This document shows positions 153-24,807 of a DNA stretch of 25,487 nt, one piece after another. The notes under the pieces were generated by a model that was given only the letters and a program-made list of their open reading frames with translations, was not told the DNA's origin and made no database searches. The position numbers and the translations under genes are program-made. The DNA comes from a virus (lineage: Duplodnaviria > Caudoviricetes): the IMG/VR virus record IMGVR_UViG_3300037422_000391, positions 1 to 25,487 of that record, one strand, 5' to 3'. Position 1 is the first letter of the stretch; each line of letters begins with the position of its first letter.

Positions 153-659
153 ATGTACATGGTCGGAATGCGCCCTGGCGAGGTCTACAGCGAGACCAGG
201 GCAAAGCGCGGTGCATGCCCCAACCCGGGCACGCGCTTCGTGGACTCGCAAGGCCGCGAGTTCATCATGGTCAAGGTCGGCGCCTCGCAGAACCTGACCA
301 ACGGCATGGCGGTCTGCATCCAGGCTGGCGACTTCCTGACGACCGTGGGCACCGTGCCCGGTGCCGGCGTGCCCAACATCGGCATGGTCGGCATCGTGCA
401 GTGCTCGATTACGGCCAGCACTTCACACCTGGTGTGGGCTCAGGTCTACGGGCTCTGCCAGAACGCCATCTTCGCTGCTTCGGCCTCTGCGCTCCCGGGT
501 GCAGCGGTGAAGTTCGCCGCGGACGGCAAGCTGACGGCGGTCGGTGTCACCACGGCGTCGGCCTACATCGCCGGCATCAACTGCGTCGCCACCAACTCGG
601 TGATCGACTCTCCGGTTGGCCAGATCTTCCTCAACTACCCGAAGGCCATCGGCGGCTAA
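153..659 (+). CDS. Putative capsid decoration/cement protein (168 aa)
   Basis: RBS GGGAGA 8 nt upstream; small G/A/V/T-rich beta protein with GREFIMVK and WAQVYG motifs like those of decoration proteins that follow major capsid genes; first gene of the visible virion module. Confidence 0.6.
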   Translation: MYMVGMRPGEVYSETRAKRGACPNPGTRFVDSQGREFIMVKVGASQNLTNGMAVCIQAGDFLTTVGTVPGAGVPNIGMVGIVQCSITASTSHLVWAQVYGLCQNAIFAASASALPGAAVKFAADGKLTAVGVTTASAYIAGINCVATNSVIDSPVGQIFLNYPKAIGG

Positions 660-671
660 ACGCAATCGCTG

Positions 672-689
672 GGGCGGCTTCGGCCGCCC
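672..689 (+). terminator. GC-rich cUUCGg hairpin after the decoration gene (pause, stability or weak terminator)
   Basis: GGGCGGC-TTCG-GCCGCCC perfect 7-bp stem; no U-tract. Confidence 0.45.
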
Positions 690-708
690 TGGCCCCTTGG
701 GGGAAGGT

Positions 709-1530
709 ATGAATCGCAGCATCTACATCGGTTACGACGTGCGCGAAGCAGAGACCTTCGCCATCTGCCGGCACACCCTGCGTCGCTATGCGCCGGACAT
801 CCCAATCAACGCCATCAGCTTGGAGGACGTGCGCGACGCTGGTCTCTACTGGCGCCCCACCTCGCGTGATGAAAAGGGCCGCCTATTCGACGACATCTCG
901 GACGCGCCAATGTCCACCGAGTTCGCGATCTCGCGTTTCTTGACGCCCGTGCTCGCTAAAGCCGCCGGCCGGACCGGCTGGGCACTGTTCATGGACAGCG
1001 ACATCCTCGCCCGCGACGACGTCGACGACCTGTTCGCCGAGTGCGATTCCTCCAAGGCAGTGATGTGTGTGCAGCACAACCACGTGCCGCCCGAGGGTAT
1101 CAAGATGGACGGGCAGATTCAGACGCTCTACCGGCGCAAGAACTGGTCGAGCGTAGTCGCCTATAACCTCTCCCACCCGAGCAATCGCAAGCTCACCGTG
1201 AACCTCATCAACACGGTGCCCGGCCGCCACCTGCATGCCTTCTGCTGGCTGGACGACAGTGAGATCGGCGCGCTCGACCCGTGCTGGAACTACCTGGTCG
1301 GCTACACGAAGCTCACCGACGGCGAGCAGCCCAAGCTGGTGCACCACACCGAGGGCGGCCCTTGGCTCGAAAACTACAGGGATGTGGAGTTCGCCGACGA
1401 GTGGCGCGCTGCACGCGCCTCCTGGCTGAGGGAGGGGATGGACACTCGCCCGACGGCTCGCGTCAGCGCGCTGGCGCCGCGCCGCCTTAATGGCTCCCTC
1501 CTCAACGGCGCGTCGGAGGTTCGCATCTGA
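709..1530 (+). CDS. GT-A fold glycosyltransferase (GT8/CDI-like, 273 aa)
   Basis: ATG at 709 after GGGGGAAGG; motifs IYIGYD.RE, STEFAISRFL.P, GWALFMDSDIL (DxD), YRRKNWSSV, WNYLVG, HHTEGGPW. Confidence 0.85.
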   Translation: MNRSIYIGYDVREAETFAICRHTLRRYAPDIPINAISLEDVRDAGLYWRPTSRDEKGRLFDDISDAPMSTEFAISRFLTPVLAKAAGRTGWALFMDSDILARDDVDDLFAECDSSKAVMCVQHNHVPPEGIKMDGQIQTLYRRKNWSSVVAYNLSHPSNRKLTVNLINTVPGRHLHAFCWLDDSEIGALDPCWNYLVGYTKLTDGEQPKLVHHTEGGPWLENYRDVEFADEWRAARASWLREGMDTRPTARVSALAPRRLNGSLLNGASEVRI

Positions 1531-3218
1531 TGCCGTTGATCTCGAAAGAGTACCGCGAGATGAACCGGCAGCTGCACGCCGAGCACCCGACTTACGGCAT
1601 CTCCGCTGGCCACTTCCGGGATTTTGTGTACGGCCTGTGGAAGGTCGAGGGCTACAAGACCATTCTCGACTGGGGTTGCGGTAAGGGCGTTCTGAAGCAG
1701 CTGCTGCCGGACCTGCCGATCGCCGAATACGACCCGGCGATCGATGGCAAGGATGCCATCCCCCAGCCGGCCGAGCTGGTGGTGTGCTTCGACGTTTTGG
1801 AGCATGTCGAGCCCGAGTATCTCAACGCGGTGCTTCGCCATCTCCAGGGCCTGACCGGACAGAAGCTCGCTTTCAACATCGCGACCCGACCGGCCAACAA
1901 GACGCTGCCTGACGGCCGCAACGCGCACCTCTCGCTGCACGATGAAGCTTGGTGGCGGCGCAAGCTACTCGGCTACTTCCAGATCATTTCGTGGAACGCC
2001 CTGGAGGGCACGGTCTACGGCGAGGCCTTGCCGATCCGCGGCGCTGTGCTGCACGCGCACGGCCTGGCGACGCGAAAGCGCCGACCAGTCAGCCGCGACC
2101 TCGCCGCCATGTTCGAGGCGATGAAGGCCAACTCGGCCAGGTACGCCGACGAGGTCCACCGCATCAAGACGGTCGAGATGTGGGAGGGCAACGGCGACAA
2201 GCCTGCCGATGTCATCGCTGCGATCAACATCCTCGAGCATTGCGCCGACATCGATGCAGCCCTGCAGGATATGGCGCTGAAGGCCAGGCTCGGCGTGCTG
2301 GTGACGATGCCGGCTCCGAAGAACGAGGCCTTGTGGCGGAACATCTTCGAGCGCCGCCTGCGGATCGTCGACTGGATGATCCAGGACGGCGGCTTGGTCA
2401 TGTTCGGCAGCCCGATGGTGGGCGTGCAGGGCGTGAAGGCCATCGGCGCCGTCGACTCCGATGCGCGCTGGGAGCAGGTGAAGTGGTCGGTGGAGCGCTA
2501 CCCGAAGCGCATCGAGCCCGCACCCAGACACCACCGCACGGCAATCCTGTGCTGCTACGGACCGTCGTTGGTCGACATGGTTCAGTGTATCAAGGACGAG
2601 CACGCAAAGGGCAATGCCGACATCATCTCGGTGTCCGGCGCGCACGATTTCCTGCTGCAGAACGGGATCGTGCCCAAGTACCACGTCGAGTGCGACCCGC
2701 GCCCGCACAAGGCCCTCAACCTCGAGAAGCCGCACCCTGGGGTGACCTATCTCGTCGCCTCGACCTGCCACTCCGACTACTTCAAGCGGCTCGAGGGCGC
2801 CGATATCAGGCTGTGGCACGTCGCCACCGCCGAACACTCGATCCGCCTGGTAGATGAGCTCAGGCAGTCGAGCGAACACTGCGTCTCCGGCGGCGGCTCG
2901 GTCGGTTTGCGCTCGCTGCCCCTGCTCTACTGCATGGGGTACCGCGACTACGCGATCTTCGGGATGGACTCATCGTTCCGCGATGACGGCCATCAGCAGT
3001 GGGCCGGCAAGCATGCTGGCAAGAAGCATGACATCGTCGATGTCGACTGCGGCGGTCGGATCTTCAAGTCGAGCCCGATCCTGCTGACTTACGCGACCGG
3101 CTTCTTCGAGACGATCCAGAAGACGCACGATGCCCGGTACCGCGTCTACGGCGACAGCCTGTTGGCATCGATGTGCGTGCTTTACGCCGAGCTCCCCATA
3201 TCAGCCAAGGCAGCGTGA
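1530..3218 (+). CDS. Fusion of a class I SAM methyltransferase, a degenerate second MTase-like segment and a DUF115/MAF_flag10 (Maf/MptE-like) domain (562 aa)
   Basis: ILDWGCGKG and CFDVLEHV (MTase); repeat-like ADVIAAINILEHC; C-terminal CYGPSL...GIVPKYHVECDP...GGGSVG...MGYRDYAIFGMDSSF typical of DUF115/Maf; TGATG coupling to the upstream GT. Confidence 0.75.
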   Translation: MPLISKEYREMNRQLHAEHPTYGISAGHFRDFVYGLWKVEGYKTILDWGCGKGVLKQLLPDLPIAEYDPAIDGKDAIPQPAELVVCFDVLEHVEPEYLNAVLRHLQGLTGQKLAFNIATRPANKTLPDGRNAHLSLHDEAWWRRKLLGYFQIISWNALEGTVYGEALPIRGAVLHAHGLATRKRRPVSRDLAAMFEAMKANSARYADEVHRIKTVEMWEGNGDKPADVIAAINILEHCADIDAALQDMALKARLGVLVTMPAPKNEALWRNIFERRLRIVDWMIQDGGLVMFGSPMVGVQGVKAIGAVDSDARWEQVKWSVERYPKRIEPAPRHHRTAILCCYGPSLVDMVQCIKDEHAKGNADIISVSGAHDFLLQNGIVPKYHVECDPRPHKALNLEKPHPGVTYLVASTCHSDYFKRLEGADIRLWHVATAEHSIRLVDELRQSSEHCVSGGGSVGLRSLPLLYCMGYRDYAIFGMDSSFRDDGHQQWAGKHAGKKHDIVDVDCGGRIFKSSPILLTYATGFFETIQKTHDARYRVYGDSLLASMCVLYAELPISAKAA

Positions 3219-18841: not shown

Positions 18842-19081
18842 ATGGTGTCCCTTCATGCCGATGCGTGCGGTCGGTGCAAGAATCGCAACCCCATCTCGTT
18901 CGGCGTCGAGCCCGAGGAGGCCTGGCGCACTGTCGTCCTGAACCGCTGGCGAACCTTGTGCCCTGCATGCTTCGATCAGCTCGCTGAGCAGGCGGGCGTG
19001 CGCTACAAGTTCGTGAAGCTCGAAGGGACGGCGTGGAGCGACCGGCCGCTGCCGCGGGAGAGCAGGGGACGGAGGCGCTAG
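18842..19081 (+). CDS. Small CxxC...CxxC zinc-finger protein (79 aa)
   Basis: CGRC...LCPACF; no SD, possibly leaderless from TTGCCG-N18-TACATG. Confidence 0.65.
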   Translation: MVSLHADACGRCKNRNPISFGVEPEEAWRTVVLNRWRTLCPACFDQLAEQAGVRYKFVKLEGTAWSDRPLPRESRGRRR

Positions 19082-19097
19082 GCAGCACCGTGGAATC

Positions 19098-19142
19098 GGG
19101 CGCTGCAGACGCCCAAGAGCGCAGGGCGCAGTAGACGCCCAA
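19098..19142. repeat. Two tandem near-identical hairpins GGGCG-N7-CGCCC-AA
   Basis: GGGCGCTGCAGACGCCCAA (19098-19116) and GGGCGCAGTAGACGCCCAA (19124-19142). Confidence 0.7.
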
Positions 19143-19169
19143 ACACGAAGGCCGCCCCGAAGGACGGCC
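19141..19169 (-). terminator. Rho-independent terminator (minus strand)
   Basis: GGCCGUCC-UUCG-GGGCGGCC-UUCGUGUUU; the U-G stem pair forms only on the minus-strand RNA. Confidence 0.75.
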
Positions 19170-19216
19170 CTCGCTGAACGAAGAAGCGCCGCTGATGGCA
19201 CACCTCCGTCTCGACA
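19141..19216 (-). ncRNA. Candidate ~76-nt antisense sRNA (antitoxin-like)
   Basis: Bounded by a candidate promoter TTGATC-N16-TAAAAG (19249-19222) and the terminator; its first 31 nt can pair with 19380-19410 of the divergent peptide leader. Confidence 0.6.
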
Positions 19217-19410
19217 CTACCCTTTTACTCTGAAAATTCGACGGATCAATGTCGTGTACAACTAGTTGAAGTATCGATAATTTTTGGCAGTTTCTGTCTA
19301 TTTCCTTTATGTGGCGTACCTGCCACGCTCTCCCCCCCTCCAAAAGAAGGACATGGTCTCAATCTATAAGACTGCAAGCGCGCTGCTGGTGGGACACCTT
19401 CGTCTCGACA
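19186..19410 (+). repeat. 31-nt imperfect direct repeat (19186-19216 and 19380-19410, 27/31 identical)
   Basis: GCGCCGCTGATGGCACACCTCCGTCTCGACA vs GCGCTGCTGGTGGGACACCTTCGTCTCGACA. Confidence 0.9.
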
Positions 19411-19468
19411 ACGTAAGACCCTCCAGCCAGCGCGTGACTACCCGATTGACCAGCTCGAGGAGGTCCGC

Positions 19469-19621
19469 ATGGACATATCCCTTGAGTTCTGGACGGGTGG
19501 CCTGGGGCTCCTCCTGGGTGGCATCGGGATCTTCCTCGCACTGAGGGCAGATACGGTGCTCCACGAGATCCGTAGGCAAGTCGAGGCTGTCAAGCGCATC
19601 GTCTGCGCCCAGCGGACTTGA
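19469..19621 (+). CDS. 50-aa single-TM peptide (type I toxin-like), MDISLEFWTGGLGLLLGGIGIFLALRADTVLHEIRRQVEAVKRIVCAQRT
   Basis: Strong SD GAGGAGG 5 nt before ATG, own downstream terminator; below the ORF-track length cutoff. Confidence 0.75.
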   Translation: MDISLEFWTGGLGLLLGGIGIFLALRADTVLHEIRRQVEAVKRIVCAQRT

Positions 19622-19639
19622 CCACCGTCACGAGCTCGG

Positions 19640-19666
19640 CCCCGGCGCCATAAGCGCCGGGGTTTT
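19640..19666 (+). terminator. Rho-independent terminator after the 50-aa peptide
   Basis: CCCCGGCGC-CATAA-GCGCCGGGG-TTTT, perfect 9-bp stem. Confidence 0.85.
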
Positions 19667-19694
19667 CGCTCCTTGGCTGGCGACATTTGCCGCC

Positions 19695-20636
19695 TCAGTC
19701 GGTGACGAAGACCCCCGGGTCAAGCTTCAAGCCGCTCGAGCGCTCGGGCCGCGCGTGGAGGTAGCCAGACGTCGTCGCCACGTTGCTGTGCCCCAAGGTT
19801 TCCTGCACCTCGGCAAGGGTCGCGCCGCGGTCGAGGGCATGGCTGCCGTGGGCGTGCCGCAGCCAGTGGGGCGACAGCTGGCCGGTGACGCCGGCGCGCC
19901 TTGCCGTCCGCTTCACCATCGCGTGCACGCTACGGGTCGAGAGATGGCCGCCCTGACGCGAAGCGAAGACGGGGTGCTCTGGTCCGGTGACTCCGAGAAT
20001 GCCTCTCAGCGCTTCGCTAGCGGGTTTTGGCAGCAAGACCTGGCGCACCTTGCCGCCCTTGCCGGTGATGGACAGCTGCAGGAGCTCGCCTCGGTCGATG
20101 ACCATCGCTCCGGTGAGGTCGACCACCTCCTGCGGACGCAGGCCGCCGCCGTAGGCCACTTGGATGAGCACGCGGTCGCGTTTGGTCTTCGCGGCTCTGA
20201 TGAGCAGGCCAACCTCGACCTCGCTGATGATGCGCTTCGTCATGGTAGCTCCCCTGTTCTCCGACCGCACCTTGATGGTGACGCCGGCGTTGAATGGCGT
20301 GTAGCCGAGCTCGTGCGCATAGGTGAGCAGGCTCTTGACGCGAAGCACGTACTGCCTTGCCGAGCTGTCTCCGACCTCGGCCGTGATCCTGTCGATCGCC
20401 TCGCGCACGTGCTCGACCGTTGCTAATCGCATCCCCATCTGCAGCCCGGCCAGGAAGCGACGGCCGGTCTGCCGGAAGTTTCTGCGGCTATGCGAGGAGC
20501 CGAGCGAGGCGAGCCACGAGTGCAGGAGTTGCTCGTCGGTCTCGGCACTGGTGGCGCGCGGCAGCGCGACGATACGCGGCTCGCGCGCAACGATGCGAGC
20601 TGCCCCACTGTCTTGCGCGTTCACCGCTACGGTCAC
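19695..20636 (-). CDS. Xer-like tyrosine recombinase/resolvase (about 313 aa; start uncertain, ATG 20648 is the alternative)
   Basis: Complete catalytic set GGLRPQE, TGKGGK, HWLRH, LGH, TSGY; GTG at 20636 overlaps the upstream micro-ORF stop (GTGA). Confidence 0.9.
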   Translation of the reverse strand: MTVAVNAQDSGAARIVAREPRIVALPRATSAETDEQLLHSWLASLGSSHSRRNFRQTGRRFLAGLQMGMRLATVEHVREAIDRITAEVGDSSARQYVLRVKSLLTYAHELGYTPFNAGVTIKVRSENRGATMTKRIISEVEVGLLIRAAKTKRDRVLIQVAYGGGLRPQEVVDLTGAMVIDRGELLQLSITGKGGKVRQVLLPKPASEALRGILGVTGPEHPVFASRQGGHLSTRSVHAMVKRTARRAGVTGQLSPHWLRHAHGSHALDRGATLAEVQETLGHSNVATTSGYLHARPERSSGLKLDPGVFVTD

Positions 20637-20776
20637 CGCAGCCACCATGTGGTGAAGTCGAACGCAATCCAGGCGATGAAGGCGAGAATGGCGACATTCC
20701 GGACGCGGCCAGAATTGCGGCTGGCCCACGTGGTCGGCCACCAGGTCATGAACCGGTTGAAGAGGTTGGCGCTCAT
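20633..20776 (-). CDS. 47-aa Trp-rich membrane peptide (MSANLFNRFMTWWPTTWASRNSGRVRNVAILAFIAWIAFDFTTWWLR)
   Basis: RBS GGAG; ATGA and GTGA overlaps on both sides; one hydrophobic helix. Confidence 0.55.
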   Translation of the reverse strand: MSANLFNRFMTWWPTTWASRNSGRVRNVAILAFIAWIAFDFTTWWLR

Positions 20777-20937
20777 GATTTTCTCCGTTTGCTGAACACG
20801 TTAGAGGCGTCTACCGGGACCTGCGGGGCGCACAAGTGCGCAAGCCAGCGCGCGATGGCGGTGCGGGAGCGTCGTGCGTCGTCTGGGCACCTGCGGCGGG
20901 CAATGAACCTGCGAAAGAGGATCCAGATCCTGATCAT
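20773..20937 (-). CDS. 54-aa basic hypothetical protein
   Basis: GGAGGCGGA upstream; ATGA overlaps with both neighbours. Confidence 0.45.
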   Translation of the reverse strand: MIRIWILFRRFIARRRCPDDARRSRTAIARWLAHLCAPQVPVDASNVFSKRRKS

Positions 20938-21158
20938 GGTTTCCGCCTCCGCCGATGCAAGCGCTCGACCACAACGGGCTTCGGCTTCTCGCCCGTGGCG
21001 GCGGGCGACCAGCGTGCGTCTCGAGCACGGGCCCGCGCCTCGGCGACACGGTCGCGCCCCGGGGGCGACGCCTTCTGGACGAATCCGAACCATGGCTCCG
21101 TGAGCGGCAGAGGCCGTTGGATGAGGGGCGTACGGGCCGCGGGACCTCGCTTGATCAT
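20934..21158 (-). CDS. 74-aa basic hypothetical protein
   Basis: ATGA overlap with the RHH gene stop and with the next ORF. Confidence 0.45.
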   Translation of the reverse strand: MIKRGPAARTPLIQRPLPLTEPWFGFVQKASPPGRDRVAEARARARDARWSPAATGEKPKPVVVERLHRRRRKP

Positions 21159-21415
21159 AAGCGCGTTCCCTTCATCTTGTCGTCGAGCTCCTGGATGGCG
21201 CGCTCCATCGTTTCGGTGAAGGAGCAGGCCAGCGCGTTGCTGAGCCGGATGATCTGCTCCCGCCGCTCGGGTGTGACGCGGAAGATGATCTGCTTGGTTT
21301 TTCCGAGGCGGCGGCGACGACGGCCGTCGATTGATGCCATGGCTCGTTCCTCGGCCCTGTCTCTGCCCTCACGCTGCGTTCTCGGCGCGACGGTCTGCAT
21401 GTCCAGCTTGGTCAT
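21155..21415 (-). CDS. Ribbon-helix-helix partner of ParA (ParG-like, 86 aa)
   Basis: KTKQIIFRVTPERREQIIRLSNALACSFTETMERAI strand-helix-helix pattern, Arg-rich flexible N-terminus; directly downstream of parA. Confidence 0.7.
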   Translation of the reverse strand: MTKLDMQTVAPRTQREGRDRAEERAMASIDGRRRRRLGKTKQIIFRVTPERREQIIRLSNALACSFTETMERAIQELDDKMKGTRL

Positions 21416-22049
21416 TGTCGGCCTTTCTGATGACGAACTCGATCGCTTGAACGAGGTTTATGATCTCCACGCTGGCTTCCCGGTTGATCTCCGCGCCGCT
21501 CTTCGCGGCAATACACGCCCTCGCGTAGTCGACCCGGTTGGTCAGTTGCACTGGGCGGTGCGCCGCCATCGGCTCGAGCTTCTTCAACGTTTGGGCCGCA
21601 ATCGTTGACCTGCCATCGACCTTGTTCAGGACGAACAGCGACCGGTGTCGCTTTCCCAGCTTGTCGACTTCCTTGAGGGCATCCTCCTGAGACCACAGGT
21701 CGAGGGGGCTCGGGAGCAAAGGGAGCACGATGCAATCGGCCGCTGCGATGGCATCCCGCATCACATTCATGAAAGCTCCTGGCGTATCGACGACCAGGTA
21801 GTCGCGCTCGTACCCTGCGCTCTTGAGGCTTGCTATGGTGCTCGAGATGAGATCGACGTTTTCGAGAAGGACGATGCGGTCATCGCTCGCATGCCTGGCG
21901 CGATGCTCACAGAGCTCGGCTAGCGATTTTTGGGGATCGAGGTCGGCAACGTAGACCGTGTGGCCCTTTGCGAGCTCAACGGTGATCGCCATGGCGATGG
22001 TCGTCTTGCCGACGCCGCCTTTCGACCCCGCACACGCGATTGTCTTCAC
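21369..22049 (-). CDS. parA: ParA-family (type Ib, ParF-like) partition ATPase (226 aa)
   Basis: Deviant Walker A KGGVGKTT, DLDPQ, VVDTPG, LNKV; no N-terminal HTH. Confidence 0.92.
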   Translation of the reverse strand: MKTIACAGSKGGVGKTTIAMAITVELAKGHTVYVADLDPQKSLAELCEHRARHASDDRIVLLENVDLISSTIASLKSAGYERDYLVVDTPGAFMNVMRDAIAAADCIVLPLLPSPLDLWSQEDALKEVDKLGKRHRSLFVLNKVDGRSTIAAQTLKKLEPMAAHRPVQLTNRVDYARACIAAKSGAEINREASVEIINLVQAIEFVIRKADNDQAGHADRRAENAA

Positions 22050-22083
22050 AGCTAGCGCCCGGTGCAATCATCGATCATGATCA

Positions 22084-22125
22084 AAGATAGCCTTGCTTGA
22101 CACAAATGTCAAGCAAGGCTACACT
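22084..22125. promoter_or_regulatory. Palindromic bidirectional sigma70 promoter/operator
   Basis: TAGCCTTGCTTGACA-CAAA-TGTCAAGCAAGGCTA (22088-22121); plus strand TTGACA-N17-TACACT, minus strand TTGACA-N17-TATCTT. Confidence 0.85.
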
Positions 22126-22180
22126 ATCAGAATGATCGACACGAATGATATCTGCGAGATAGCTGCCTTATAGCCACACC

Positions 22181-23347
22181 ATGCATCCCCGCTCTCCGAG
22201 CCTCCGTGCGAGGCTTACCCTCGCAGGCCTCGCACGTGCCCTCGCACTCGTCTGGCTGGTCCCGGCGCTCCTCTGGAACATCGATTGGACGGGGATCTCA
22301 GGCTGGGCGCACAACGGCGCCGCCGTTGGCACGATCCTCGGCGCGGCCTTGTTAATCCACATCTCCTCGGCCCGGCCGCACCTGATCGGCACCCCGGTCC
22401 TCCTGCTGGTCGCCTTGTTCATGGTCTACGGCAACACCAAGCAGGCCGTGCGCGCGTTGAGCTTCTCCGGCGAGGTTGCCAGCGAGGCTCGCGAGGCCAA
22501 AATCGCCGCAGGCTCGCAGGTCGCCTCGCAGCGCTCGCACCTTGAAAAGCGACGGGAAGCCCAAGTCAAAGTTGCAGGTGAGGCCGCTGCCGCAACCCTG
22601 GAAGCCGAGCTGGAAGCGATCAAGGTTGCCGAGCCCCGCCGATGGCAGCTCACGAGGGGCTGTCACCCAGATGAGGTGACCAAGTCTGTCACCTTCTGCC
22701 TCCAGGTCGCCCAGGCCAAGGCCAAAGTCGCTGCTGCCGCCGAGCGGGATAAGATCGATGCAGAAATGGCGAGGCTACCAGCGGCGGCGACCATCTCGAC
22801 TGGCCTCGCCGACGGGCAGAAGCAGGTCGCCGATCCCTACGTCGCCAACGTGATCGAGCTGCTGAGAGAACTCGGGCTCCGGCCCTCCGAGCGGCTGGTC
22901 AAGTCCGAGGAGGCCGTCAGCCGCGCGCTGGGCCTCGAGTTGCTGGCCGCCTTTGGCCCAAGCTGCTGGCTCATTTTCGTGGACCTGCTCGCCGGCGTCG
23001 GCGGCGCCGCGTCGTCAGCATCAGCACGCTTCAAGGGCCTGTCGAAAAGACTGCGAAACGCCGAGGGCGCAGCGCCGCCGGCCCCGGGCGAGCCGGCCAA
23101 AGCCGACGCCATAGACCGCTGGATCGCCGACGACTTGGAGGTGCACGCGGGAACCGTCACCTTCGCCAAGGCGCTGCGCCAGACGCCCGGCTGGCCGGCC
23201 CACCAGCCCGGCATCACGGAAAACGCCATCTGGCAGCGGCTGAAGAAGGTACCTGGCGTCAAGCACGATCCCAACAGCGGCCGACCCCGCTACTTCGGCC
23301 TCCGGATCCGCGCGAAGGGCCCAACCCTCGTAGTCAACAACGTATAG
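22181..23347 (+). CDS. Membrane protein with coiled coil and putative C-terminal winged-helix DNA-binding domain (388 aa)
   Basis: Three N-terminal TM segments, coiled coil with W..TRGC...FC, a further hydrophobic segment, C-terminal IDRWIAD...IWQRL...RYFGLRI resembling primase/D5 C-terminal domains. Confidence 0.6.
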   Translation: MHPRSPSLRARLTLAGLARALALVWLVPALLWNIDWTGISGWAHNGAAVGTILGAALLIHISSARPHLIGTPVLLLVALFMVYGNTKQAVRALSFSGEVASEAREAKIAAGSQVASQRSHLEKRREAQVKVAGEAAAATLEAELEAIKVAEPRRWQLTRGCHPDEVTKSVTFCLQVAQAKAKVAAAAERDKIDAEMARLPAAATISTGLADGQKQVADPYVANVIELLRELGLRPSERLVKSEEAVSRALGLELLAAFGPSCWLIFVDLLAGVGGAASSASARFKGLSKRLRNAEGAAPPAPGEPAKADAIDRWIADDLEVHAGTVTFAKALRQTPGWPAHQPGITENAIWQRLKKVPGVKHDPNSGRPRYFGLRIRAKGPTLVVNNV

Positions 23348-23386
23348 ACGCTTGCGGGCGAGGTTTAGTGTAGCTATATGTCGGTC

Positions 23387-23731
23387 ATGAGGCGCTGGCC
23401 TGACTATCTGAGGCGCGACACGCTTGCTGCTCGCCTCGATGTGGCACCCGGCTACGTGGATCAGCTACGCAAACGCGGGCTGCTGCCGGAGCCGATCAGG
23501 CTGGGCGAGGCAGAGCTCTATCGTTGGGCCGACATCGAGCAGGTCTTGCAATCTGGGAGCGTGCATGCTGACGTGCGGGCCGACGATCCCTACCTCGACG
23601 CTCTCAATGCCCCGTCGGCCGAAGCTTCCACCGCACGTGCGCCGCGTCGTAGCCAGGGGCAAACCCTACGTCTACTTCCAACGGGGCCGATCGACGGCGC
23701 GGGCGGGAAAGCCGATCAGGCTGCCGGATGA
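23387..23731 (+). CDS. Excisionase/AlpA-like HTH protein (ATG 23378 is the alternative start)
   Basis: YLRRDTLAARLDV...VDQLRKRGLLPEPIRLG...RWADI wHTH pattern; immediately upstream of and overlapping the integrase. Confidence 0.75.
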   Translation: MRRWPDYLRRDTLAARLDVAPGYVDQLRKRGLLPEPIRLGEAELYRWADIEQVLQSGSVHADVRADDPYLDALNAPSAEASTARAPRRSQGQTLRLLPTGPIDGAGGKADQAAG

Positions 23732-24662
23732 CGTCGACTCCGCCGAATTCTGGGCTGCCTACGCGGCTGCTGCCAACCTCCCGCTGCCCCAGCCGCGACC
23801 CAATGCCGTCGGTCTCCTCATCGACGCTTACCAACAAAGCCCCGAATGGAAGGACCTCGCCGACAAGACACGCGAGGAGTGGACACGGTATCTAGACCGG
23901 GTGCGGCAGCGCTGGGGTCACCTCGAGGTGCGCGGCATCGAGCCGAAGCATGTGCTGGCGCTCCGGGACACGTACGCGAGCACGCCGGCGTCGGCCAACA
24001 ACCTCTTGCGCGCGTTATCGTCGATGCTGTCGTGGTCGGTGCCGCGGGGCTGGCGCACCGACAATCCATGCGATCACGTCAAGAAGCTCAAGGGCGGCGA
24101 GGGCTATGCGCCCTGGTCGAGACGTGAGATCGCGCACTTCGGGAAGCATGCGCGCTCGGACCTCTGGCACTCTGCAGCGCTCGCCCTCTACACCGGCCAG
24201 CGCCAAGGTGACGTGGTCGTGATGCGGCGCTCGAGCATTCGTGATGGCGAGATCGAGGTGGTGCAGCACAAGACGGGCAAGCGGGTATGGATTCCGCTCC
24301 ACCCCGACCTCAAGGCGATCCTCGCCGAGATGCCGAAGCGCTCAGTGTTTCTGCTGACGAACTCGGTCGGCACGCCATGGACGCAGGATGGGTTTCGCGC
24401 GAGCTGGCAGGCGGAGATGGACCGCCGCATCTTCAAGCCGCTGCGGCGCCGCCGGCGCGTGTTTCATGGATTGCGCAAGAGCGCGGTGGTCTTTCTGCTC
24501 GAGGCCGGCTGCACCGATGCTCAGGTGGCGGCCATCACGGGGCAGAGCCGGCAGATGATCGAGCACTATGCGCGACAGGTGAACCAGAGGAAGTTGGCAC
24601 GTGCCGCCGTGCTGAAATGGGGCCGGGCCGACAGACGGACGAGGAACGAACCGGGGCGCTGA
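23607..24662 (+). CDS. int: Phage tyrosine integrase (351 aa)
   Basis: MPRRPKLPPHV...YVYFQRGR arm-binding N-terminus; YTGQRQGD, HKTG, FHGLRKS, MIEHY catalytic motifs; points toward the tRNA 3' end. Confidence 0.93.
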   Translation: MPRRPKLPPHVRRVVARGKPYVYFQRGRSTARAGKPIRLPDDVDSAEFWAAYAAAANLPLPQPRPNAVGLLIDAYQQSPEWKDLADKTREEWTRYLDRVRQRWGHLEVRGIEPKHVLALRDTYASTPASANNLLRALSSMLSWSVPRGWRTDNPCDHVKKLKGGEGYAPWSRREIAHFGKHARSDLWHSAALALYTGQRQGDVVVMRRSSIRDGEIEVVQHKTGKRVWIPLHPDLKAILAEMPKRSVFLLTNSVGTPWTQDGFRASWQAEMDRRIFKPLRRRRRVFHGLRKSAVVFLLEAGCTDAQVAAITGQSRQMIEHYARQVNQRKLARAAVLKWGRADRRTRNEPGR

Positions 24663-24683
24663 TTGTCAAACGCCTTGTCAAAC
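24663..24683 (+). repeat. Direct repeat TTGTCAAAC x2, probable integrase arm-type sites of the att junction
   Basis: 24663-24671 and 24675-24683, between the int stop and the tRNA 3' end. Confidence 0.55.
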
Positions 24684-24729
24684 CGACGGCACAGCGGAAC
24701 TCAAGAAACGTCTAAGTTACTGAATACAT

Positions 24730-24807
24730 TGGCGATCCCGGCAGGATTCGAACCTGCGACCCTCTGCTTAGAAGGCAGATGCTCTAGTCCAGCTGAGCTA
24801 CGGGACC
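24730..24807 (-). tRNA. tRNA-Arg(UCU), prophage attachment site
   Basis: Cloverleaf GGTCCCG acceptor, anticodon arm TCTGC-CTTCTAA-GCAGA, T arm GCAGG-TTCGAAT-CCTGC, encoded CCA. Confidence 0.97.

Follow-up and report, generated by a model that had tools for sequence, protein, structure and literature searches.

A candidate type I toxin-antitoxin locus in a putative alphaproteobacterial prophage, with a predicted divergent antisense RNA and a 50-aa membrane peptide

A virus record of 25,487 nt, here called the window, contains a gene for a 50-aa peptide with one hydrophobic segment and, divergently oriented upstream of it, a predicted small RNA (sRNA) unit whose 5' part is complementary to the leader of the peptide mRNA. 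The feature is real and well built, and it probably represents a new family of a known kind, namely a divergent, leader-targeting type I toxin-antitoxin family that would work like timP/TimR or tisB/IstR. On the sequence evidence, a type I toxin-antitoxin pair is the likeliest reading of the locus, as the original prediction had proposed.

The window carries tail-type genes, a tyrosine recombinase, a ParA-like gene, an excisionase-like gene and an integrase, which adjoins a tRNA at 24733-24807; a host gene of the NDUS4 family comes next. The best matches of the encoded NDUS4-family protein share 76-80% identity with it and carry the labels Hyphomicrobiaceae, Hyphomicrobiales or uncultured Alphaproteobacteria; we infer that the element is a prophage integrated in a member of the Hyphomicrobiaceae. 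The locus is part of a group of accessory genes that separates the tail region from the recombinase, with the Xer-like tyrosine recombinase gene directly 3' of it. Two further prophages that carry a related Xer-like gene both lack the sRNA/peptide module. The region 19695-24807 holds two tyrosine recombinases, the ParA-like gene and the excisionase-like gene beside the tRNA, and the element may have both integrated and plasmid-like states. A near-perfect inverted repeat with TTGACA (22085-22121) is located between the divergent parA-like gene and a 388-aa ORF; its fold (z -6.2) is the strongest among 340 control windows, and it is possibly an operator, promoter or origin element. Among the structural genes, the region 616-3218 encodes a methyltransferase/MptE-like fusion protein (562 aa), and the 304-aa ORF upstream of it has no Pfam match.

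The anatomy of the locus can be read directly from the DNA (Table 1). The elements listed in the original prediction, i.e. the peptide ORF, its GAGGAGG, the TATAAG, the minus-strand promoter and the UUCG hairpin, were all found where it had placed them.

Table 1. Coordinates of the features of the locus within the window
Feature	Position	Strand	Details
Predicted sRNA, ~76 nt	19141..19216	-	6-nt free 5' tail, hairpin 19210-19177, terminator-like hairpin 19174-19145
Predicted sRNA terminator	19145..19174	-	13-bp UUCG hairpin with short U tail; UUCG loop 19161-19158
Antisense segment, sRNA nt 1-31	19186..19216	-	30/31 positions pair with the leader
Direct repeat, 31 nt	19186-19216 / 19380-19410		27/31 identical
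Candidate sRNA promoter, TTGATC-N16-TAAAAG	19222..19249	-	TTGATC 19249-19244, TAAAAG 19227-19222
AT-rich spacer between divergent promoters	19259-19268 (10 nt), 19272-19279 (8 nt)		Two perfect palindromes at these positions
Candidate mRNA promoter	19310..19370	+	Short inverted repeat, 18-nt block where the -35 is expected, then TATAAG 19365-19370
5' leader hairpin	19378..19435	+	sRNA predicted to target the 5' arm and the 7-nt loop (19404-19410)
Extended stem	19438..19500	+	Predicted to lock SD and start region against early codons
SD GAGGAGG	19457-19463	+	
Peptide gene, 50 aa	19469..19621	+	Acidic N-terminus, hydrophobic segment 7-25, basic amphipathic C-terminal half
Predicted mRNA terminator	19638..19666	+	GC-rich hairpin followed by four U; z -4.0 for 19620-19680

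The predicted 76-nt RNA has a computed folding energy of -44.1 kcal/mol and a z-score of -4.9 to -5.2, compared with -1.4 for the plus strand, and a z-score of -4.5 or lower was reached by 1 of 340 control windows. The candidate sRNA promoter agrees with the consensus at 8 of 12 positions and is devoid of the -7T, which alphaproteobacterial promoters commonly lack (PMC7703639). A consensus scan at its thresholds called neither of the two promoters and neither of the two terminators, and the U tracts are short at both predicted terminators. Directly behind the predicted sRNA terminator, two 26-nt copies (19098-19149) are arranged head-to-tail with 77% identity. A frame of 86 aa that overlaps the locus yielded no homologs.

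The predicted starts of sRNA and mRNA are ~160 nt apart, and the spacer between the divergent promoters is AT-rich as originally described (36% GC at 19250-19299); its palindromes are possible operators. The alphaproteobacterial LexA-type motif is GAAC-N7-GAAC, and no such box is present in the spacer. A single perfect GAAC-N7-GAAC occurs at 18940-18954, inside a 105-aa ORF, and one-mismatch matches across the window are at chance level.

The candidate mRNA promoter has counterparts in host DNA. Its block matches the region upstream of a host gene in G332/L106 (about 1480-1550) with 82% identity and an E value of 1e-5, and a similar block with a TA-starting hexamer at the same offset is found in G217/L121 (about 1455-1535). 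In these two genomes of the nearest genus, the block corresponding to 19310-19358 precedes the gene for a conserved 341-aa host protein of no Pfam family. A promoter-like block, again with a TA-starting hexamer at the same offset, is also present on one contig of the sequencing run X1. The recurrence of block and hexamer supports the assignment of TATAAG as a real -10 element, and the sharing of the block hints at a host activator. As a family-wide motif, the 18-nt block was rejected: it occurs in 25 of 251 genomes, a reversed control gives a similar number and the matches are mostly in coding sequence, so that no regulon is indicated.

Evidence for an antisense function comes from the 31-nt repeat. 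At an identity of at least 27/31 and a spacing of 40-400 nt it is unique in the 25,487 nt, and the best repeat in 300 shuffles of the 2-kb region reaches 23/31. The claim that the 5' 31 nt of the minus RNA are complementary to the leader at 19380-19410 is confirmed, with the repeat far exceeding chance, and computed folding and pairing of both RNAs point the same way: in addition to the strong fold of the minus RNA, its duplex with the plus leader consists of 27 Watson-Crick pairs, 3 G-U pairs and 1 mismatch and has an energy of -60.7 kcal/mol, compared with -46.0 kcal/mol for the opposite orientation. When the antisense segment was run against targets across the window, excluding its own complement, the leader ranked best (-61 kcal/mol, followed by -40.7). 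After accounting for the structures that have to be opened, net binding is about -19 kcal/mol, or -27 by co-folding. The first six bases of the sRNA are mostly unpaired and complementary to the 7-nt loop of the leader hairpin.

It had also been argued that the G-U pairs mark selection on RNA pairing rather than on DNA identity. The underlying observation holds, in that three of the four differences between the copies become G-U pairs and 30 of the 31 positions pair, but alone it is no proof of such selection. The bias by itself has a chance probability of about 0.02-0.11, depending on transition bias, and it cannot be credited to the duplex alone because the leader hairpin, too, requires all four differences: 19 of the 31 positions are paired in it and all four variant bases form Watson-Crick pairs. 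Giving the leader the bases of the sRNA copy costs 9.8 kcal/mol, and the reciprocal exchange costs 9.0 kcal/mol, almost wholly from two positions. The size of these costs is unexceptional, as the average for four changes made at random is 5.4 plus or minus 4.4 kcal/mol. The partner arm of each hairpin nevertheless matches its own copy, which favours a function as RNA on the predicted strands.

This match also bears on the idea that no sRNA is made and that the repeat is a DNA feature, be it a duplication relic, an operator pair or a set of sites for the Xer-like recombinase. The tyrosine recombinase gene directly downstream and the weak promoter consensus would fit such a role. It is nevertheless quite improbable, since each copy belongs to a separate strand-specific hairpin, in which the partner arm fits the variant bases of the copy, and since relatives keep both pieces while their flanks differ. 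Sites of the dif type have two-arm symmetry, which the repeat lacks.

With reservations, we consider it possible that the antitoxin arose by duplication of the leader of the toxin, that the two copies were then tuned to their separate folds while a G-U-tolerant pairing was kept, and that the loop captured by the sRNA also switches the locked ribosome-binding site open.

Conservation of RNA fragments was observed in X1, which may be the source sample of the window itself. Eight contigs of this run were compared: one is the window's own sequence, one contains the sRNA terminator only, one has the promoter block mentioned above and five are short relatives (51-151 nt, depth 2-3.4) that are unlinked to each other. 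In one relative, the similarity to 19169-19216 (2 differences) breaks off at 19216, where the sRNA is predicted to start, and a hexamer beginning with TA lies 6 nt upstream of that start. Another contains the leader hairpin (19377-19439, 3 differences), followed by a different linker and an AGGAGGT five bases before an ATG. The remaining contigs contain 30 nt identical to the antisense copy, the mRNA terminator (19634-19669, 5 differences) and a match to the coding region, respectively. As far as these short sequences go, relatives appear to keep both RNA pieces, i.e. the 5' part of the sRNA and the leader hairpin, and not their flanks.

A further indication comes from P0006, an ENA homolog of the peptide that is called with a 34-residue extension spanning its leader. 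When back-translated, this extension beats 150 of 150 shuffles against the antisense copy, with the match ending at 19216. Against the window's own leader the match is weaker, being beaten by 2/150 shuffles for the whole leader and by 25/150 for its 5' half. Residues 2-15 of P0006, which were picked post hoc, have their top-scoring match on the two strands of the whole window at 19216 (19.6 vs 16.5). The shorter extension of P0015 gave no match when back-translated. Thus, a similar target seems to be present in one independent relative, about 60 nt ahead of the start codon.

A complete homologous locus was not found in metagenomes, GTDB, IMG/VR, genomes of the host family or phage and plasmid collections. 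The metagenome scan returned one locus, which is spurious and antisense to an ABC permease-like ORF. Peptide-pattern scans gave 0 of 118 stretches in GTDB and no homolog in three scans of IMG/VR, where DNA patterns gave 5 and 7 chance matches. Two-copy patterns hit at least 237 loci and, among the matches listed, none has the peptide or more than 37/62 matches to the two copies. In the host family, DNA searches retrieved 15 of 401 genomes, comprising 14 terminator hairpins and 1 promoter block; the peptide profile gave one weak hit (1/401) within a 243-aa frame, which was discarded, as was a core pattern found in 3/401 genomes versus 1 control match, none with the anatomy of the locus. The 42 genomes of the nearest genus contain no peptide match and short matches only to the RNA regions. 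As the host-family genomes are incomplete, the locus counts as not found in them rather than as absent. Matches in the phage and plasmid collections are limited to short chance or terminator matches.

The peptide itself is conserved. A single-sequence search detected 6 homologs at 64-81% identity, a profile search added 5 further homologs and one doubtful sequence, and an exhaustive search added P0015, P0016 and P0017. Because P0004 and P0005 have an identical peptide, merging leaves at least 12 distinct metagenomic homologs with 48-81% identity; P0014 (E 8.4) was left out of this count. All stem from assemblies of metagenomes or of Logan, and the contigs with a stated length span 0.6-12 kb. 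The 55-aa P0004 shares a 90% cluster with P0008, an unrelated 396-aa protein, which is apparently a database artefact. The homologs keep the length, a single hydrophobic segment near the N-terminus, a neutral-to-acidic N-terminal part and a basic C-terminal part. The hydrophobic segment 7-25 has a hydropathy of 1.85, within a moderate range of 1.2-2.0. The AlphaFold model shows a single continuous helix from residue 2 to 49 (pLDDT 91), in which positions 10, 13, 17, 20, 24 and 27 are Gly or Ala and form a small-residue face, and the 3-4 register runs on into Leu31, Ile34, Val38, Val41 and Val45. This model suggests that the peptide could form an oligomeric helix bundle.

The original statement that the locus does not belong to a described family is upheld by the absence of any type I toxin match and of any Rfam match. 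Twelve members were scanned against the type I toxin models in Pfam and NCBIfam at E 0.1 without a match, on the assumption that these databases hold a model for each of the named families (TisB, ShoB, ZorO, DinQ, TimP, Hok, Ldr, Ibs, Fst). A match of 6 of the 12 members to MakE, which stayed far below the cutoff (best E 0.0015), and one to DUF2371 were read as compositional. For the window's peptide, PHROGs and PADLOC gave no match, and neither the fold search against viral structures nor the sequence search of the PDB returned anything useful.

The same sRNA repression could act on a non-toxic membrane accessory of the phage, for example a factor for superinfection exclusion, a peptide that helps lysis or one that modulates a membrane protein of the host. 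Consistent with this idea are the prophage location among accessory genes, the nearest Atlas clusters (viral hypothetical proteins of 49-60 aa at a score of 0.88, which is no more than a lead), the C-terminal helix, which is long and amphipathic and could bind a partner, and the precedent of HokW, which is described as assisting phage release (PMC8621323). However, a locked ribosome-binding site, a dedicated terminator and a near-perfect 31-nt antisense control are traits of toxic peptides, and the peptide has no match in PHROGs, PADLOC or viral folds and no IMG/VR homolog in the three pattern scans. A non-toxic accessory is an unlikely, though not negligible, reading and the main rival of the toxin.

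How a toxic peptide would be kept silent has to be considered in view of the predicted leader, which is about 92 nt long and contains two predicted stems. The mRNA is predicted to be monocistronic and about 290 nt long, with a sequestered SD and a terminator-like hairpin. The first hairpin has a probability of about 1.0 in every transcript prefix from 19435 onwards, and its loop is 96% unpaired. The SD is predicted to be about 80% paired, and opening its stem costs 18.7 kcal/mol, the second highest value of 18 window genes (range 4.4-19.1), although one ordinary window gene has an equally costly ribosome-binding site (19.1 kcal/mol). The sRNA target ends 47 nt upstream of the SD and, according to equilibrium folding, access to the SD is nearly unchanged when the target is blocked by the sRNA. 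Because SD access hardly shifts, repression must act outside what equilibrium folding captures. Candidate contacts of the loop are the 5' arm of the SD stem (19455-19460, -6.2 kcal/mol) and codons at 19580-19587 (-11.4 kcal/mol). Either might be the counterpart of the pseudoknot that activates the timP leader and is disrupted by TimR.

These calculations also speak against a role of the sRNA as an activator of translation, whose GGAGGU would trap an anti-SD in the leader (19396-19401) and free the ribosome-binding site. Two pairings are feasible, one between 19396-19401 and the SD (19459-19464; -5.8 kcal/mol) and one between the loop and the SD stem's 5' arm (-6.2 kcal/mol), but the anti-SD is already engaged in the 5' hairpin in every prefix and blocking the target leaves the SD closed, which makes activation very improbable. 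A release mechanism, in which the sRNA frees CCCUCC (19417-19424) for pairing with the SD, was also rejected, as this pairing has a probability of 0-0.05.

For the preferred toxin-antitoxin reading, the following sequence of events is proposed. Once made, the mRNA would fold its 5' hairpin while the second stem locks the SD; with the SD locked in this stem, the mRNA would therefore be poorly translated by default. By analogy with timP and tisB, translation would depend on an activating element further upstream, within the 5' hairpin or close to it. This could be a standby site or, alternatively, a contact of the loop by which the SD stem is opened. The unpaired 5' tail of the sRNA would dock on the 7-nt loop and invade the 5' arm, generating a 30-bp duplex that ends 47 nt before the SD. 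Such a duplex would take away the activating element and give nucleases a double-stranded substrate; loss of a standby site, loss of the loop contact and duplex decay are the candidate routes of repression suggested by the same two systems. If sRNA synthesis stopped, for example upon prophage loss, induction or host shut-off, the peptide could be made. By analogy, it might insert with its N-terminus out, oligomerise via its small-residue face and damage the membrane. By the same analogy, the most plausible role would be prophage maintenance.

The appeal of the locus lies in the extension of this layout to a new class and in an antitoxin origin that may still be visible, with expression, toxicity and mechanism predicted from sequence and from analogy. 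Passages of Fozo et al. 2010 (PMC2887945) describe the divergent layout as found only in E. coli and close relatives, leave its presence in other bacteria undecided, report no homologs of known toxins outside Firmicutes and Gammaproteobacteria, and ask how such sRNAs arise. A 2025 paper gives the range of type I systems as Proteobacteria, Firmicutes and Tenericutes, with the classes unnamed in the part considered (PMC12390103). In titles and the openings of abstracts, covering few subscription papers, no type I pair of Alphaproteobacteria was found; tables S7/S8 of Fozo et al. and the T1TAdb organism list lie outside this scope and may hold predicted candidates. In another class, a divergent layout that has no link in sequence with the families of enterobacteria and apparently still shows the duplication behind the antitoxin would provide a compact and testable case for the questions of Fozo et al. 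It would give alphaproteobacterial genetics a small RNA-controlled switch and could serve as a seed in the search for similar pairs, via short direct repeats upstream of small membrane-peptide genes.

Among phage RNAs, C4 and sRNA-Xcc1 resemble the locus in that they recognise a repeated sequence in a nearby leader. The C4 layout comprises two short boxes and a co-directional RNA, unlike the one long pairing region and the divergent unit found here. Rfam models of antitoxins, leaders, C4 and sRNA-Xcc1 gave best local scores of 13-19 bits, which correspond to terminator hairpins and lie below the gathering scores, and a scan of the whole window against Rfam gave no match. In C. difficile, the phiCD630-1 antitoxins overlap the toxin message. 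The hok/sok antitoxin overlaps its toxin message as well (PMC8594479), whereas here it would be a separate divergent copy. The hokW/sokW pair of Sp5 and the phiCD630-1 pairs share with the locus a small membrane peptide, a prophage location and RNA control, and, in the portions of these reports considered, prophage type I pairs are assigned roles in phage release or maintenance (PMC8621323, PMC7699646).

By sequence and structural model, the predicted components lie within the ranges of type I systems, i.e. a single-helix hydrophobic peptide of <60 aa, an mRNA of 150-400 nt and an antisense RNA of 60-200 nt. With the sRNA 5' of the mRNA and with a predicted target that precedes the SD within the 5' UTR, the divergent, leader-targeting layout, which had been likened to tisB/istR, shoB/ohsC and zorO/orzO, is supported. 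The divergent subgroup (tisB, shoB, zorO, dinQ, timP) is characterised, in the sections of the sources used (PMC8594479, PMC2887945), by an upstream, non-overlapping sRNA within 300 nt and by extended pairing with the 5' UTR, as is the locus. There are differences in detail: tisB has a LexA-type box in its spacer, which is absent here, and zorO has a 180-nt leader with a perfect 21-nt match, compared with 31 nt including 3 G-U pairs and 1 mismatch.

The closest working model is timP/TimR of Salmonella and other enterobacteria, according to parts of several reports (PMC7667032, PMC11228461, PMC13000454, PMC8167048). In timP/TimR (ryfA, RF00126 in Rfam), as in the locus, the 5' end of a divergent sRNA pairs with a leader stem-loop. 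Portions of two of these reports (PMC7667032, PMC11228461) further describe a target that lies about 50 nt before the SD, the SD itself being locked in a separate stem, and a small membrane peptide, located in the inner membrane in the case of timP. To the ryfA model itself, the locus has only a 23-nt terminator-level match (13 bits vs a gathering score of 80). The timP leader is longer (144 nt with four stems), the target is the first hairpin here, unlike in timP/TimR, and the peptide has 50 aa instead of the 38 aa of TimP and is prophage-borne in a putative alphaproteobacterium. Thus, by sequence the locus falls into no named family, and by layout it looks like a member of the divergent subgroup.
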